Positions 11,755 to 18,783 of a DNA stretch of 50,961 nt are shown here, piece by piece. Position numbers and translations under genes: made by a program. Origin of the DNA: Candidatus Micrarchaeum sp. GTDB taxonomy: Archaea; Micrarchaeota; Micrarchaeia; CABMEP01. The notes under the pieces were generated by a model. The model did no database searches, had not been told where the DNA came from, and saw only the letters and a program-made list of their open reading frames with translations. Every line of letters begins with the position of its first letter. Position 1 is the stretch's first letter. The stretch spans positions 1 through 50,961 of the forward strand of contig DYJP01000006.1 in assembly GCA_020723065.1 (NCBI GenBank), given 5' to 3'.

Positions 11755-12945
11755 ATGCAAGCAGAATTGAATATAGGTTTATTAGGCCATGTTGACCATG
11801 GGAAAACAAGCGTTACAAAAATGCTTACTGGAACATGGACAGATATACATAGTATGGAGATAAAGAGAGGAATCACGATCAAGCTCGGGTATGCCGAAAT
11901 GATGTCAAGTTTTTGCGAAAAGTGTGGTATTTATACGAATTCCAAAAAATGTCATAAGTGCGGTGGAGAGAGTAAGGAGTTAAGGAAAATTTCCTTTGTA
12001 GATGCTCCTGGTCATGAAACGCTCATGGCCACGGTCATTTCCGCGTCTTCAATACTCGATGGTGCTCTTCTTATAATTGCGGCTAACGAGCAATGTCCGC
12101 AGCCACAGACAAAGGAACACAAGATGGTGCTGGAAACCCTTGGTATAAAGAATATTGTAGTAGTCCAGAACAAGATAGATTTAGTATCAAAGGAAAAGGC
12201 GAAAGAGCACTATAAACAGATAAAAGAGTTTCTAAAGGGTTCAATCTATGAGAATGCTCCGATTATCCCTATTTCTGCAAATTATAATGCTAATTTAGAC
12301 ATTCTTCTAGAGGCCATAGACAAAAATATTCCTACACCAAAGAGAGATGAATCAAAAGATGCTTTATTCTTTATTGCGCGTTCTTTTGATGTTAACAAGC
12401 CTGGAATTGTCGTTGAGAAGCTTGTTGGTGGAGTGGTAGGGGGGTCGGTGGTCTCTGGTGAATTTAAGGTAGGGGATGAGATAGAGATATCGCCCGGAAT
12501 TGTAAGAATAAACAAGCAGGTTCCAGAACCAATAAAGTCGAAGATAATAGCGATGTTTGCAGGTTCCGAGAAGCTTGAGAGCGTAAAGCCAGGGGGATTG
12601 GTTGCGATCCAGACTACTTTGGATCCGTCTCTTGCAAAAGCAGATGGGCTTATAGGCAATGTTATTGGAAAAGTAGGATCTCTACCTCCTTTATACGATT
12701 CTTTGAAAGTTGAATACTCATTGCTGAACCGTGTAGATTTTGAAAATCACGGAATAAAAGAAGGCGAGACGCTCGTAGTTTCGGTCGGGACAGCTACATC
12801 CATAGGTGTTGCACAGAAAGTCAAGAAGAATAAGATGGAAATAATTCTCAAAAGGCCAGTATGCGTTCCGATTAGTTCAAAGATCGCCATCTCAAGGAAA
12901 ATAAATCAGAGATGGAGGCTTGCTGGAGCAGGCAAGATTTTATAA
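11755..12945 (+). CDS. eif2g: Translation initiation factor aIF2 gamma subunit
   Basis: GHVDHGKT, RGITIKLGYA, Zn ribbon, DAPGHE, NKID, RWRLAG. Confidence 0.97.
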   Translation: MQAELNIGLLGHVDHGKTSVTKMLTGTWTDIHSMEIKRGITIKLGYAEMMSSFCEKCGIYTNSKKCHKCGGESKELRKISFVDAPGHETLMATVISASSILDGALLIIAANEQCPQPQTKEHKMVLETLGIKNIVVVQNKIDLVSKEKAKEHYKQIKEFLKGSIYENAPIIPISANYNANLDILLEAIDKNIPTPKRDESKDALFFIARSFDVNKPGIVVEKLVGGVVGGSVVSGEFKVGDEIEISPGIVRINKQVPEPIKSKIIAMFAGSEKLESVKPGGLVAIQTTLDPSLAKADGLIGNVIGKVGSLPPLYDSLKVEYSLLNRVDFENHGIKEGETLVVSVGTATSIGVAQKVKKNKMEIILKRPVCVPISSKIAISRKINQRWRLAGAGKIL

Positions 12946-13048
12946 TCAAATACTTTTTCTTTTAAAGTTAGACAAATATACGTGCAGCTTTGCCTCTGAT
13001 TTATTTTTTAAAACAAAATAAAAAATAAAATTAAAAAATTAAGAAAGA

Positions 13049-13225
13049 TTATGCTTTCTTGGGCTTCTTCGCTCTTGTCCACTTGAATTTTGCGGGCTTT
13101 CTCTTGAGATCAAGCATGTTCTTGATGCATTTTCCGGTGTCAAAGTAGAGCAGAGTGCCGTCAGTTTTGACGTATACTAGACCCGTTCCTTTCTTTATTT
13201 CTTTGTTACAGAATGAACATTTCAT
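13049..13225 (-). CDS. rpl24e: 50S ribosomal protein L24e (58 aa; not in ORF track)
   Basis: MKCSFCNKEIKKGTGLVYVKTDGTLLYFDTGKCIKNMLDLKRKPAKFKWT; follows S28e. Confidence 0.95.
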   Translation of the reverse strand: MKCSFCNKEIKKGTGLVYVKTDGTLLYFDTGKCIKNMLDLKRKPAKFKWTRAKKPKKA

Positions 13226-13236
13226 ATATCAACACC

Positions 13237-13560
13237 TTACTTTGTCCTGATTTGCTTGGCTTCTCTTTCAGTGTCGACCAAGAGCAAAATATCGCCTTTC
13301 TTTATTTGGCCTTTGACATTTCTTCTGATGACTCTTCCTTTGTCCCTTCCGTCAAGAACTCTGCACATGACTTGCCTTACTTCGCCTCTTGTGCCTGTCT
13401 TGCCGATTAGCTCGACAACTTCTGCCCTGTAGCCATTGAATTCGTGTTCTTGTGGTTTTGTTTCTGTCTTTGCGGACTGAGAAACCTTTTCTTTTATCTG
13501 TTCCTTTGGTTGTTGTGTCGGAGCTTCTTTCTTTTTGTCTATTTTTTTGTCATCTGTCAT
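13237..13560 (-). CDS. rps28e: 30S ribosomal protein S28e with N-terminal charged extension
   Basis: [44 protein letters not shown]; GGTGA SD before ATG 13560. Confidence 0.95.
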
Positions 13561-13585
13561 TAAAATCACCTAGTTGGTTGACAGG

Positions 13586-14035
13586 TTATTCCTTCTTCTT
13601 TGGCTTTTTTTCCTTCGCCAACTTTGTCGGCTTCTTTTCTTCCTTGCTTTCCGACTTTATTTCCTTTTTCTGTGGAACCTTCTGACCGAGCTTAGTTAAG
13701 ATGTCTTCGATTTCATCTTTTGCTCCACCGAGATTCTCTATTGCTATTGCTGCGCACGTTACTGTCAAGCCGATAGCCTTTCCAAGATCAACCTTGGTTG
13801 GAACATATACGAAAGGAATTCCCTTTTCCTCGCATAAAATTGGAAGGTGCATTACGATCTCTTCTGGATTGACGTCTGCTGCAATAACAACGAGCATCGC
13901 TTTTCCGGATTCGATTGATTTTGTTGTCTCGTTTGCACCCTTTCTTATTTTTCCAGTGTCCTTCGCAACACTTATTGCGTTGATGACTCTGTCAGATATT
14001 TCCTTTGGAACTTCAAATTTCACATAGCTTGCCAT
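13586..14035 (-). CDS. rpl7ae: 50S ribosomal protein L7Ae with Lys/Glu-rich C-terminal tail
   Basis: YVKFEVP..GKIRKGANETTKSIE..VIAADVNPEEIVMHLPILCEEK. Confidence 0.97.
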   Translation of the reverse strand: MASYVKFEVPKEISDRVINAISVAKDTGKIRKGANETTKSIESGKAMLVVIAADVNPEEIVMHLPILCEEKGIPFVYVPTKVDLGKAIGLTVTCAAIAIENLGGAKDEIEDILTKLGQKVPQKKEIKSESKEEKKPTKLAKEKKPKKKE

Positions 14036-14067
14036 ACTCTCACACCTCTTATAGTTCATAGAGCATG
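14033..14067 (-). promoter_or_regulatory. K-turn in the L7Ae 5' UTR covering SD and start codon
   Basis: Minus strand: CAUGCUC-UAU-GA-AC...GU-GA-GAGUAUG, giving a 7-bp C-stem, 3-nt bulge and tandem GA/AG pairs. Confidence 0.75.
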
Positions 14068-14194
14068 CATATTGCATACTTTTATTTAATACTATAAAAT
14101 TATGTACACTGAAAATTTGTACAATTAGATAAATATATTATGTAGTAATAGTTTAAAATCTTTACTGATTCTCTAGGCCTTTGAAGATTCGGAT

Positions 14195-16138
14195 TCAAGC
14201 AAGTAGATAGACTTCCTTAACTCCGTCTATTTTTTTCATATCCTGCCTTATCTTGTTGACTTCTTCCATTGAGTTGTACCTTATAATCATGTTGATCATA
14301 ATCTTTTCGTCTTTGGTATCGGAGATATTGATCTTCTGGATGTTGACTTTGTGTTTCATGAGGTTCTTTATTACCTCTGAAAGCAGGGTCGGTCGGTCCT
14401 CAGATATTATGTTTATTTTCTGGAGGTATATGCTAGTCTTCTCTCCCCAGAATGCCGGAATCTTTCTTTTTGCTTCCGGCGAACTAGCGAATGCCTTGCA
14501 GTCCTTCTTGTGGATTGTATATTTGCCTTCCTTCGGCGGATAAGTAACTATCTCGTCGTTTATTCCCGGATTGCAGCATTTGGGTATCTTTATGTTTGGA
14601 GAGTTTATGTAAGCTATCAATTCTCCATTTTCGATCTTGGCCTTCTTTCCCTTTTCTTGTTCTACAATTTTCACTTCTCTCTGGATGTTTCTTCGCTTGC
14701 CTACCATCTTCAACGCAGCTCTTATCTTGCCTTTCGCTTTAGACGTTTTTACGATACCTAACCAGTTTATATTTGCCTTTTGTGACGGGGAGGTTATGAC
14801 TTCGACTATGTCTCCGTCCTGGATAGTGTGGTTGAATTGGACCAGATTGCCGTTTACTTTTATTTTGTCAGCATGCAACCCTATGTTGGTATGGAGTGCA
14901 AACGCAAAGTCCAGTGCAGTTGAACCTGCTGAAAGTTCTATCATATCTCCTTTCGGGGTAAAGGCGACCACCCCTCTTTCGAAGAGTTCTATTTTTATCC
15001 CATCAATGTATTCCTTCTCTTCTTTGATTTCCTTTTGCCATGAGAGCAGGTTTCTCATCCATTCTATCTTTTTGTCGTACTCTCCCTGTTCGTGTCCCTT
15101 GTATCTCCAATGGGCAGCTATTCCACTTTCAGCTATCCTGTCCATCTCTTCTGTTCTTATCTGAGCCTCGATATTTTGACCTTTCTTTGTTATGAAATTA
15201 AGATGGAGCGATTGATACATGTTTGACTTCGGGGAGGAGATGTAGTCGTCCAATGTGCCCGGAATCATTCCATACTTTTCGTTTATTATCTCTAATATCC
15301 TATAGCAGTCACTTACTCTCTTAGTTATTATTCTTATCGCAAAAAGGTCCATAAGCTGGTCGAATGTGAGTTCCTTTTTTTTCATTTTCTTATAAATAGA
15401 ATAGATGTGCTTTTCTCTGCCCTTGACCATTACATCGATGCCTCTCGATTTTAGAAGTCTTTCTATTTCAGTTCTTATTTTTTCTACTTCTCCAATTTTG
15501 TCTTTTTTCTTCTCTTCTAGTGAATTTTTTATTTGCTTATATGTTTCAGGTTCTACTACGGAAAGGTAGAGATCTTCCAGTTCGTTCTTAATTTTTGTTA
15601 TGTTGAGTTTGTGGGCGAGCGGAACGTAAATTTCAATAGTTTCTTCCACCATTCTCTTCTGTTTATATTCGGGCAGGTATCTTATGGTTCTCATATTATG
15701 CAGCCTGTCTCCAAGCTTTATGAGGATAATGCGCACGTCCTTGCTTAAGATAAGCATCATCTTTCTTATGTTTTCAACTTCCGCTTGTTCAAGCCGTAGG
15801 AAAGGTATTTTTCCTATCTTAGTGAGTCCATCCACGATCTTTGCCACATTATCTCCAAATTCCTGTTCTATAGTTTGGATCGGGATTCCTACGTCTTTGC
15901 ATACATCGTGAAGAAGAGCAGCTTGAAGTGTGGTAATATCATTCGAATATTCTGAAACAATCTCAGCTACAGCCATGCAGTGGAATATGTACGGCTCACC
16001 TGAAAGTCTGTATTGATTTTTGTGGGCCAATGCTGCAAATTCGAATGCCTTCCTTATTTGGGCTTTTTCAGGGCCTTCACTACCGATCTTTCGCATAAGT
16101 TTTTCAAATTCTTCTTCTATCTCCTTTTCGAATTGCAT
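14195..16138 (-). CDS. Long RelA/SpoT homologue (HD, synthetase, TGS, Cys/ZFD, ACT)
   Basis: HKNQYRLSGEPYIFH, LLHD, LIKLGDRLHNMRT, GREKHIYSIYKKM, YQSLH, EAQIRT, AAHWRYK, FTPKG..DFAFALHT, KCCNP..HKKDC, DRPTLLSEV. Confidence 0.95.
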   Translation of the reverse strand: MQFEKEIEEEFEKLMRKIGSEGPEKAQIRKAFEFAALAHKNQYRLSGEPYIFHCMAVAEIVSEYSNDITTLQAALLHDVCKDVGIPIQTIEQEFGDNVAKIVDGLTKIGKIPFLRLEQAEVENIRKMMLILSKDVRIILIKLGDRLHNMRTIRYLPEYKQKRMVEETIEIYVPLAHKLNITKIKNELEDLYLSVVEPETYKQIKNSLEEKKKDKIGEVEKIRTEIERLLKSRGIDVMVKGREKHIYSIYKKMKKKELTFDQLMDLFAIRIITKRVSDCYRILEIINEKYGMIPGTLDDYISSPKSNMYQSLHLNFITKKGQNIEAQIRTEEMDRIAESGIAAHWRYKGHEQGEYDKKIEWMRNLLSWQKEIKEEKEYIDGIKIELFERGVVAFTPKGDMIELSAGSTALDFAFALHTNIGLHADKIKVNGNLVQFNHTIQDGDIVEVITSPSQKANINWLGIVKTSKAKGKIRAALKMVGKRRNIQREVKIVEQEKGKKAKIENGELIAYINSPNIKIPKCCNPGINDEIVTYPPKEGKYTIHKKDCKAFASSPEAKRKIPAFWGEKTSIYLQKINIISEDRPTLLSEVIKNLMKHKVNIQKINISDTKDEKIMINMIIRYNSMEEVNKIRQDMKKIDGVKEVYLLA

Positions 16139-16166
16139 GGATCACACGTTTCTCTTTGCTTTTAGA

Positions 16167-16673
16167 TTATTCTAAAAGTTCTGCAATCTTGATTCCAAAT
16201 TTTTCTGCGGACTTTGGACCATCTGCGGTGACTATTCTACCATCTACGATCACTTCGCTTTCAATGTACTTTGCTCCTTTTGCAGAAAGATTTTTCCTTT
16301 CAGAAGGGTAGCATGTTGCATTTTTACCTTCTAGCACACCCGCATTTGCGAGAATTGATGGCGCGATACATATCGCTCCGATAACTTTGTTTAATGATTT
16401 TGCATTTTTCGCAATATTTAAAGCGGTCTTGTCATCGAAATACATCGAAGCTCCGCTTCCTCCTATGAATACGACGGCTTCATATTCATTCACATTCACA
16501 GATTCAAGACTTTTATCGATTTGTGTGGTCGCCCCGAGCATTCCTTTCGCCAGGCAGATTTCCTTTGAAGTTACTGTAACTTGAAAACCTTTTTTTTCAA
16601 AAATTTCCTTTGTTCTAAATAATTCTTCGTCTCTGAAATCGACTGGTGCAATAATCATTAGTATTTTTACCAT
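16167..16673 (-). CDS. DJ-1/PfpI family protein
   Basis: FRDEE, FIGGSG, nucleophile elbow GAICIAP, IVTADGP. Confidence 0.92.
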   Translation of the reverse strand: MVKILMIIAPVDFRDEELFRTKEIFEKKGFQVTVTSKEICLAKGMLGATTQIDKSLESVNVNEYEAVVFIGGSGASMYFDDKTALNIAKNAKSLNKVIGAICIAPSILANAGVLEGKNATCYPSERKNLSAKGAKYIESEVIVDGRIVTADGPKSAEKFGIKIAELLE

Positions 16674-16774
16674 GTATTAATAATTAAGATAAAAAATTAA
16701 AAACCAGTATATATTTTTCGCCACCTTTTAGATTCATGATTTTTAGTGATTTTTATTTCTTTCTAATATATACT

Positions 16775-17241
16775 ATGGAGAATTATCAAAAGATGTTCAT
16801 TTCTATCATGATACCTTTGGCCGTAGGGTTCATTGGATTGGCTTTCACCTCAAGTTCGCTTTCAGATTGATATTCTGATTTGGTCAAGCCAGGTTTCAAT
16901 CCGCCGAACTGGGTTTTCGCTCCAGTGTGGACCAGCCTTTACCTTCTAATGGGAACTGCAGCCTATTTAATCTGGAAAAAAGGATATTCTGAAAAAACTA
17001 AGCCGGCGTTTTTGGTTTATTTATTCAGCTTTTCCTGAATTTTTTATGGTTTGTCTTGTTCTTTGGATTAAGGAATCCGTTGTACGGGCTTTTAGAAATA
17101 GTTGTTTTTTGGTTTGTGATAGTTACAAATATATTTATGTTTTACAAGATTGATAAAGTTTCGGCTTATCTTCTGGTTCCTTATTTGCTGTGGGTGAGCT
17201 TTGCTTCGGTTCTTAATTATTTTATTTTCGTTCTTAATTAA
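16775..17241 (+). pseudogene. tspO: TspO/MBR tryptophan-rich sensory protein pseudogene
   Basis: [30 protein letters not shown] and LVPYLLWVSFASVLN; in-frame TGA at 16868-70 at the conserved Trp, plus a 1-nt frameshift near 17020. Confidence 0.9.
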
Positions 17242-17460: not shown

Positions 17461-18783
17461 TTAAATTCCAAGTAGGATTGCTATCGCAATAATTGCTACC
17501 GCTCCAATTATGAAGAGTCCTACAAATATTTTGAAACTCACTGGCAGATCCTCTATGTTGCTGTATTTTTCTTCAAGGCTCTTCTCTATTTGCATCCTTT
17601 CGAACGATGCCTCTTCTATTCCGTATTCGTTTATCACTGTGTTGGGGAAAATGTACTTGACGTTCGCCATTAGTGGTGGAAGTTTAAGATTTAGTTCCCA
17701 GAGGTCGTATTTTCCACCATCTATTAGTGAAGTCTTTGAGCAGTTAATGCAATCCACAGATACCGGAGGGATAAACATCGAATTCAGGAATACTGGGTTT
17801 TCTGCAATATTTCTTATTTTAACTATTGTAGGCTGGTTTTGTTCAAGTGGAGGCTGCGGAGAGAATACTACTGTAGTTTTGATCGGATTTATTTCGGTGT
17901 AATTTATTATCTCTATTGTTGTGCTTGATTGGAGGCTTACTGTCCTAGCGTCCTTTGAAGTTGCGTTTATCGAATCTTGCAATTTGCTTATATCTGAAGA
18001 GGTCCCAGTTCTTACCCTCAAGGCGTTCAAGTTCAGGAACTGGTTGTGCGTCGGGTCTATCTCTATCCAGCCGTATTCCGGAAGGAAAGTTTCTGCCCAG
18101 GCGTGCGGAATCCATTTCCTGTCAACATATACCTGGCCTATTATTATCCTTGTCGGATACGATTTCGATCTGGCCATTGCAATGAATAAGTTTGAGAATT
18201 CGTCACAGACTCCAGTTCTACTTTGAATCACCCAGTCGGAAGGCATAGTGGTCTGAGTTATATCGCTTATCGACACGTTCGTATATGAAAGATTATATTT
18301 TACGTTATCATAAACCCATTTGGACATGTTATAAAGCTCGAGGGGAGCGGAATCTCCTGATAATTCGCGGGCGATATCTGAAATTTCATCATTTATTTTT
18401 ATGTATTCAGTATTAGTAGAATACTCTTTTTTCATTATTTCAGTTCTGTTGCTATTGATTCGGTCAATGTAATCCGTCTGGATTATGAAGTTCGCAGAGA
18501 TTCTCTTCGCCCTGATGTTGCCGAATTCAAATTTTATATTCGATTCACTGTCTGAAATAATTTTATATGGATCGGAAAAGTTCATGCTTATTATCTTCTG
18601 ATTTGCGCTTTCAGTAGGAACAGTAACTTTGAGTTCGGCATGCTCAAGAACCCCATCCGCAACCACATCCCATGTCATGGTTACATTGAGCAATGCAGTT
18701 GTAGGTCTCGCATGGATTCTAGGAAAAATTAGCATGAGTAGAATTGCCAGATAAAAGAGTATACATGAACCTTTTTTTTGCAT
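17461..18783 (-). CDS. Membrane-anchored transglutaminase-like (Cys-His-Asp) protein
   Basis: Signal peptide, GVCDEFS, HAWAE, GWIEIDPT, C-terminal TM helix. Confidence 0.9.
   Translation of the reverse strand: MQKKGSCILFYLAILLMLIFPRIHARPTTALLNVTMTWDVVADGVLEHAELKVTVPTESANQKIISMNFSDPYKIISDSESNIKFEFGNIRAKRISANFIIQTDYIDRINSNRTEIMKKEYSTNTEYIKINDEISDIARELSGDSAPLELYNMSKWVYDNVKYNLSYTNVSISDITQTTMPSDWVIQSRTGVCDEFSNLFIAMARSKSYPTRIIIGQVYVDRKWIPHAWAETFLPEYGWIEIDPTHNQFLNLNALRVRTGTSSDISKLQDSINATSKDARTVSLQSSTTIEIINYTEINPIKTTVVFSPQPPLEQNQPTIVKIRNIAENPVFLNSMFIPPVSVDCINCSKTSLIDGGKYDLWELNLKLPPLMANVKYIFPNTVINEYGIEEASFERMQIEKSLEEKYSNIEDLPVSFKIFVGLFIIGAVAIIAIAILLGI

Follow-up and report, generated by a model that had tools for sequence, protein, structure and literature searches.

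The survey of Atkinson et al. 2011 detected no long RelA/SpoT homologues (RSHs) in archaea (PMC3153485). In a later study, Li et al. 2021 reported RelA/SpoT genes in Diapherotrites (69%), Woesearchaeota (41.7%), Pacearchaeota (21.3%) and Nanoarchaeota (19%) and predicted these DPANN genes to be of bacterial origin; Micrarchaeota are not among the groups listed there with such values (PMC8407392). Here we describe a long RSH gene from Candidatus Micrarchaeum sp., a member of family f1 of the Micrarchaeia within DPANN (assembly GCA_020723065.1, 652 kb in 22 contigs, 92% complete). The gene lies on contig DYJP01000006.1, a stretch of 50,961 nucleotides that was analysed as one whole contig and is called the window below. 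The initial annotation of this DNA had presented the gene as a rarity, model archaea being held to lack a (p)ppGpp stringent response; this premise is dated, since DPANN RelA/SpoT genes were reported in 2021, and public records already label these proteins as RelA/SpoT family. We propose that the gene encodes a vertically inherited DPANN long RSH, acting as a synthetase of guanosine penta- and tetraphosphate, (p)ppGpp, with a crippled or re-purposed hydrolase, and we put the probability of this reading at roughly 60%.

The open reading frame (ORF) encodes a protein of 647 amino acids which passes the NCBIfam profile TIGR00691 (spoT_relA) with 611.7 bits for a cut-off of 499.2. It stays below the cut-offs of both equivalog profiles, that of SpoT (NF008303, 466.4 bits versus 947) and that of RelA (NF008124, 391.3 bits versus 728). 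The comparison with subfamily profiles thus assigns the protein to the long RSHs, and to neither of the RelA and SpoT equivalogs. Its closest solved structure is that of Rel from Bacillus subtilis (PDB 6yxa, E 1.4e-126), and its closest homologues are proteins of 647-654 amino acids, 51-86% identical, which belong, where the organism is named, to Candidatus Micrarchaeia or Micrarchaeota. The gene and its parts are as follows.

14195..16138, minus strand: long RSH gene, 647 amino acids (ORF; TIGR00691; match to 6yxa)
15599..16048, minus strand: HD (hydrolase) domain, residues 31-180 (Pfam HD_4, E 1.3e-41)
15893..15910, minus strand: HDVCKD motif, residues 77-82 (alignment to 6yxa; clade comparison)
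15089..15421, minus strand: synthetase (SYNTH) domain RelA_SpoT, residues 240-350 (Pfam, E 1e-38)
15245..15256, minus strand: TLDD motif, residues 295-298, in the place of RxKD/ExDD (comparison with B. subtilis Rel)
14792..14965, minus strand: TGS domain, residues 392-449 (Pfam, E 5.8e-14)
14639..14791, minus strand: what is left of the helical domain, residues 450-500 (comparison with bacterial homologues; AlphaFold2 model)
14447..14638, minus strand: zinc-finger domain (ZFD), residues 501-564 (conserved ligands C521, C522, H543, C547)
14207..14431, minus strand: ACT/RRM domain, residues 570-644 (Pfam ACT_4, E 2.4e-8; model fold)

The description of the protein given in the initial annotation, with its domains, its motifs and its short helical region, proved correct throughout when compared with Pfam, TIGR00691 and the alignments. 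Residue conservation was read from an alignment of 59 sequences, which also fed an AlphaFold2 model with a mean predicted local distance difference test score (pLDDT) of 78.6. The N-terminal half of this model superposes on Rel from Staphylococcus aureus (7oiw_A) with a template modelling (TM) score of 0.93 and a root-mean-square deviation of 1.8 Å over 336 columns, and the top Foldseek match of the whole chain is the ribosome-bound RelA of Escherichia coli (5iqr). A linker of low confidence (residues 344-388) joins the synthetase and TGS domains. Further on, the model contains a zinc-finger-like domain at 501-564, in which the ligands C521, C522 and H543 do not vary and at least 90% of the sequences have C547, and an ACT/RRM domain at 571-646 with a beta-alpha-beta-beta-alpha-beta fold. 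Compared with bacterial homologues, the protein lacks about 65-75 residues of the helical region that links TGS to the zinc finger; the roughly 50 residues left are modelled as two or three short helices at 459-492 (pLDDT below 50 at 479-496). PF19296, which the bacterial matches have, was not detected in the protein, and the domain lists precomputed for the f1 clade do not contain it.

We then compared the hydrolase site with that of described enzymes. The protein aligns without gaps to B. subtilis Rel up to residue 347, which gives both a common numbering, and in this numbering Lys81 of the HDVCKD motif occupies the position of Glu81 in the HDxxED motif of Rel. We observed that position 81 is basic in each of the 21 proteins of the f1 clade whose sequence covers the N-terminus (Lys in 6, Arg in 15), so that the Lys for Glu noticed in the initial annotation is real and is fixed in the clade as Lys or Arg. 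A Glu is found at this position in 95/95 aligned bacterial matches and in all 240 long RSHs from outside the clade in which a pattern search found the motif (247 examined). Thr83 is likewise substituted in 21/21 f1-clade proteins, by Val in that of the window. One member of the clade, P0022, also carries D78G and D82N, and a sister sequence, P0262, combines EFDD with a degenerate HD site (D144C). For human MESH1, a small hydrolase from the same superfamily, the E65A replacement was described as severely impairing or abolishing catalysis (preprint 10.1101/325266); from its motif, E65 would be the Glu of HDxxED. The window protein fits neither of two established types by its hydrolase site: the bifunctional [HS] type has an intact HDxxED, here HDVCKD, and the monofunctional RelA type [hS] has a degenerate HD domain without HDxxED, when here H77, D78, D82, R44, H53, D144 and N148 are all kept.

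In the synthetase domain the catalytic residues R241, K243, D264, Y308, H312, E324 and Q326 are all invariant, in agreement with the intact motifs described initially. The alignment also bears out the position given to TLDD: residues 295-298 align to RFKD of B. subtilis Rel and to EFDD of E. coli RelA. All 22 members of the f1 clade have [TS]LDD, and 95/95 bacterial matches have R295 and K297. The RxKD of bifunctional [HS] enzymes is therefore replaced by TLDD; with respect to the ExDD of RelA [hS], the DD pair is present and the first residue is Thr or Ser, not Glu. The RxKD motif was reported to set the Mg2+ response of the synthetase domain and its preference for GTP or GDP (Sajish et al. 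2009; PMC2666561). Judging from these alignments, HDVCKD and TLDD are fixed signatures of the f1 clade.

The distribution of the gene was examined in related genomes. The synthetase family PF04607 has matches in 25 of the 61 genomes of the class, in all 6 other genomes of the genus and in 7 of 8 of the family. Of the 401 genomes taken as a sample of the phylum, 6 exceed the cut-off of TIGR00691, all six belonging to f1; an unpublished genome of this sample (G067) has a weak match only. Many other Micrarchaeia contain far more divergent pieces, such as proteins of about 500 amino acids with RelA_SpoT only, or ORFs with HD only. Among such pieces, in other families of the class (loci L029-L038), are proteins of 416-678 amino acids in which only RelA_SpoT is detectable, at about residues 230-510 (for instance L029:7203-8711, L031:7153-8754 and L038:7409-8875), one of them having a faint HD_4 match; in family f6 a RelA_SpoT-only protein is present in 9/9 genomes searched. 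In family f12, two ORFs of about 450 amino acids (L046 in G380 and L047 in G363) match positions 16-463 of TIGR00691 with E 9e-46 and 3.5e-39, respectively; they comprise HD and SYNTH and end before the C-terminal domains, and the G380 copy has two in-frame stops. A genome of the same genus (G001, L028:7521-8714) also has an ORF of 397 amino acids that joins a RelA_SpoT-like N-terminus (E 5e-7, weak) to a Ham1/ITPase domain (E 8.5e-35).

Among representatives taken at 50% identity, the f1 clade forms a single cluster and all others are at most 41% identical to it. The nearest non-archaeal homologues are the Rel proteins of Bacillota, which match over the full length with 44-49% identity. Two trees were computed, one of 174 rows with FastTree and one of 51 rows with IQ-TREE (LG+C20, posterior mean site frequency (PMSF) model, quick search). 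In the FastTree tree a clade of 23 rows (support 97) contains the f1 clade (12 rows, support 100), and the other members of the larger clade all have 629-657 amino acids and share the deletion in the helical domain. In the IQ-TREE tree, 17 short forms are split from the 34 other sequences by a branch with a Shimodaira-Hasegawa-like approximate likelihood ratio test (SH-aLRT) value of 98, and f1 is joined to P0262 with support 95. The short forms studied beside f1 were P0034, P0057, P0066, P0124, P0126, P0138 and P0262. The locus L155 encodes a protein with 60% identity to P0034; its contig has 922 kb and 30% GC, and the genes around it are PTH2, L37ae, Pcc1, prefoldin and UPF0147, which is an archaeal context. 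A contig scan with the short-form alignment, made with generic patterns, kept 80 loci that are labelled bacterial or unclassified, none archaeal, most of the matches spanning full-length genes. Since the window protein falls with the short forms in both trees and L155 is an archaeal locus, it is best read as a member of a short-form group found, at least in part, in DPANN and not as a recent import from Bacillota. Within its own family the gene is, on the sequence comparisons, vertically inherited.

Our reading starts from what these comparisons establish, namely the identity of the protein, its domain set, the state of its motifs, its inheritance and the selection acting on it. The enzyme is most likely an ATP:GTP/GDP 3'-pyrophosphotransferase producing (p)ppGpp. 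The exchange of the Glu of HDxxED for Lys or Arg would have crippled or re-purposed its hydrolase site, and the HD pocket that remains would probably be kept to bind nucleotides or to control the synthetase allosterically. On balance we favour this combination of an impaired hydrolysis with an HD pocket kept for binding or allosteric coupling. The TGS, zinc-finger and ACT domains, all of them retained, are expected to mediate its control, and it is unlikely that the classical bacterial clamp on A-site tRNA is intact. The RSH would probably be transcribed together with the DJ-1/PfpI gene located upstream, outside the L7Ae operon.

Several observations weigh against this proposal. Firstly, R44, H53, H77, D144 and N148 of the hydrolase site are invariant and D78 and D82 are conserved in at least 90% of the 59 sequences. 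Secondly, the ratio of non-synonymous to synonymous substitution rates (dN/dS), determined for three unsaturated pairs, is 0.013-0.13 in the HD domain, against 0.046-0.10 over the entire gene, which indicates a strong purifying selection on the whole HD domain, like that on the synthetase domain; such a conserved site could equally belong to a functional hydrolase or to a regulatory pocket. In addition, we did not find a second HD_4 or RelA_SpoT gene in the host genome, at its 92% completeness, and the only candidates for alternative degraders are two Nudix ORFs; Ppx/GppA and Ham1 have no match in this genome. In bacteria, a synthetase without a hydrolase was reported to be toxic (PMC3153485). 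With regard to inheritance, both trees are unrooted, and clear archaeal markers were seen at one short-form locus only, L155. Finally, xxDD is present in 15 sequences outside the clade, of which 13 have an intact HDxxED.

Most of these observations would also fit an ordinary bifunctional Rel, in which Lys or Arg at position 81 is tolerated and (p)ppGpp is both made and broken as in Bacillota. All metal-binding and other catalytic residues of the HD domain are indeed retained, and a hydrolase would be needed, as we found no other RSH hydrolase in the genome. The identity within the f1 clade, 73% for HD, 69% for SYNTH and 75% for TGS, likewise places the HD domain on a par with the synthetase. 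TLDD is no counter-argument either: with 13 long RSH representatives joining HDxxED to xxDD, the charge-reversal motif is not limited to hydrolase-dead enzymes of the RelA type, and we rejected TLDD alone as a marker of monofunctional enzymes. The sequences with an intact HDxxED and E/Q/T-x-DD are P0154, P0155, P0161, P0170, P0175, P0178, P0182, P0190, P0197, P0226, P0227, P0261 and P0126. However, a tolerated exchange is difficult to reconcile with the Glu81 kept by every one of the 240 long RSHs outside the clade and with the inactivity of MESH1 E65A (10.1101/325266). Moreover, Thr83 is replaced throughout the clade, and P0022 has lost D78 and D82, as expected if catalysis had stopped mattering. 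We therefore consider a bifunctional Rel possible but doubtful. Concerning the synthesis bias proposed in the initial annotation, the motif changes are real and fixed, the loss of hydrolysis is no more than plausible with a site otherwise conserved and no other RSH hydrolase found, and the argument from TLDD does not stand on its own.

The initial annotation had also placed the gene immediately upstream of the L7Ae-S28e-L24e genes on the same strand, which the ORF positions confirm, and had deduced an alarmone signalling linked to the ribosome. The features concerned are as follows.

16167..16673, minus strand: DJ-1/PfpI gene, directly upstream of the RSH gene (Pfam, E 7e-39)
14151..14167, minus strand: BRE/TATA-like element in the RSH-L7Ae spacer (conserved block in an alignment of the spacer from 8 genomes)
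14037..14066, minus strand: K-turn-like L7Ae leader (nearly invariant in 8 genomes, the window and L021-L027)
13586-14077 as listed, likely start 14035, minus strand: L7Ae (Pfam, E 8.4e-28)
13237-13569, minus strand: S28e (Pfam, E 2.1e-24)
13049-13225, minus strand: L24e (Pfam, E 5.3e-17)

The RSH gene is thus followed downstream by L7Ae, S28e and L24e, with aIF2-gamma opposite, all archaeal genes, and is preceded by DJ-1/PfpI and then by a gene for a transglutaminase-like membrane protein. Synteny was examined in seven RSH-carrying relatives of family f1, whose RSH proteins are 64-73% identical to that of the window. RSH is followed by L7Ae in 7/7 relatives; S28e, L24e and aIF2-gamma come next in six of them, the contig of the seventh stopping after L7Ae. 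DJ-1 is upstream of RSH in 6/7, all but G008. The gene for the transglutaminase-like membrane protein (17461-18783 in the window, minus strand) is found upstream of the RSH locus in all seven. Between it and DJ-1 the window has, at 16880-17241 on the plus strand, two short adjacent ORFs of 52 and 61 amino acids. They look like a small membrane protein cut in two, which would point to a split gene or a frameshift. As a gene on the plus strand stands between the transglutaminase-like gene and the RSH, we see no operon of these two.

Could the protein be a ribosome-dependent stringent factor, as the earlier deduction implies? It would then dock on the archaeal ribosome, read deacylated A-site tRNA through His416 and be co-expressed with L7Ae-S28e-L24e. 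His416 of the TGS domain is invariant in the 59 sequences and aligns with His420 of B. subtilis Rel, and this His (H420 in B. subtilis, H432 in E. coli) was reported to stack on the CCA end of tRNA (PMC7797070). The zinc ligands and the ACT/RRM domain are also kept under purifying selection, and the neighbourhood with L7Ae is conserved in all seven relatives. However, a stringent factor has a full helical domain, of which this protein has lost about 65-75 residues, and in B. subtilis Rel the TGS domain alone gave no stable tRNA binding; a TGS-Helical fragment did bind, and specificity needed both parts (PMC7797070). The TGS motif, GAKVNG in Bacillota Rel and KIKVNG here, and the zinc-finger loop 532-539 deviate from 95/95 bacterial sequences. 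The gene order gives no better support: the neighbours at other short-form RSH loci differ, and in a genome of the same family (G007) L7Ae has no RSH upstream, the place being taken by an ORF that reads as chorismate-mutase-like from its sequence (about 800 bp of sequence).

The spacer between RSH and L7Ae also speaks against a common expression. It measures 117 bp from the RSH stop codon to the listed L7Ae ORF and about 160 bp to the likely start at 14035. The conserved element at 14151..14167 is, presumably, an archaeal promoter, going by the archaeal consensus. The L7Ae leader overlaps the Shine-Dalgarno sequence and abuts the start codon at 14035; its stem-loop has a folding energy of -14 kcal/mol (z -1.74) and a K-turn-like arrangement, with a C-stem, a 3-nt bulge and tandem G-A/A-G over the Shine-Dalgarno sequence. 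A scan of positions 12900-16900 against Rfam gave no match at E up to 1. The leader resembles published autoregulatory leaders, by which archaeal L7Ae was reported to regulate its own mRNA (PMC5539422, PMC6298567). On the other side, only 28 bp separate the stop codon of DJ-1/PfpI from the RSH start codon, and in six relatives of the genus DJ-1 ends 10-25 nt upstream of the RSH start. With the promoter-like element and the K-turn leader in the spacer and with this short gap to DJ-1, we judge it unlikely that RSH belongs to the L7Ae operon; it is probably transcribed together with DJ-1/PfpI, and its adjacency to ribosomal protein genes looks like gene order passed on by inheritance, nothing pointing to a common transcript. 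The adjacency noted initially is thus real and conserved, and the ribosome link is weak as far as it is drawn from gene order; with the helical domain cut as it is, we regard a ribosome-dependent stringent factor as unlikely.

A further idea starts from the proposed (p)ppGpp synthetase with its altered hydrolase site and gives the HD pocket a precise role, as a (p)ppGpp-binding control site in which the basic residue 81 would hold the 3'-diphosphate where the Glu helps to cleave it, making a self-limiting synthetase. We find this quite improbable. If true, a 650-kb archaeal genome without an RSH hydrolase would possess a self-limiting alarmone synthetase, its TGS, zinc-finger and ACT domains would have been adapted to respond to a small molecule or to the ribosome of the archaeon, and the archaeal alarmone circuit would be built unlike those of both RelA and Rel.

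A bacterial contamination or a chimeric contig has a negligible probability: the nearest non-archaeal homologues are indeed Rel proteins of Bacillota, but seven further genomes have the same gene order, flanked on either side by archaeal ribosomal and aIF2-gamma genes, the composition is even along the window and the contamination of the genome is 0.15%. Chimerism, which the initial annotation had named as one way in which it could fail, is excluded by this synteny, and the RSH is a genuine and intact gene of an archaeon.

Since DPANN genomes, this one among them, carry long RSH genes that are intact and strongly constrained by purifying selection, archaeal alarmone signalling can be tested with a defined protein. 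The f1 proteins are in addition a natural variant of a single residue in the hydrolase site, hence a clean probe of the role of Glu81, and they offer a way to ask how a cell without any other RSH hydrolase copes with a synthetase. DPANN RelA/SpoT of bacterial derivation being already in print (PMC8407392), the part that we did not find described is the f1 state itself, Lys or Arg at position 81 in a hydrolase pocket otherwise intact, together with [TS]LDD. We found no description of the Lys/Arg81 variant in the literature on ppGpp or the stringent response in Micrarchaeota, DPANN or Diapherotrites, a scope outside which lie the supplements of PMC8407392, which may list Micrarchaeota genes.

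Among known systems, the protein is close to the Rel enzymes of Bacillota (B. subtilis 6yxa and 8acu, S. aureus 7oiw, RelSeq 1vj7). It has the same HD-SYNTH-TGS-ZFD-ACT order, all synthetase residues and most hydrolase residues identical, and an overall identity of 44-49%. It differs from them by Glu81 to Lys, Thr83 to Val, RFKD to TLDD, the cut in the helical domain, KIKVNG for GAKVNG, the changed zinc-finger loop and an archaeal host. With E. coli RelA ([hS], 5iqr) it shares Asp-Asp at positions 3 and 4 of the synthetase motif and possibly an activity limited to synthesis. RelA, however, was reported to have lost the whole HDxxED and other HD residues (PMC8012599), whereas in the window protein Glu81 alone is changed, and its motif begins with Glu where that of the window protein begins with Thr. 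Also close are the other DPANN RelA/SpoT proteins and short forms (P0034 and others), of 629-657 amino acids, which have the same truncated helical domain and form one tree group with it; most of these, unlike the window protein, keep HDxxED and RFKD.

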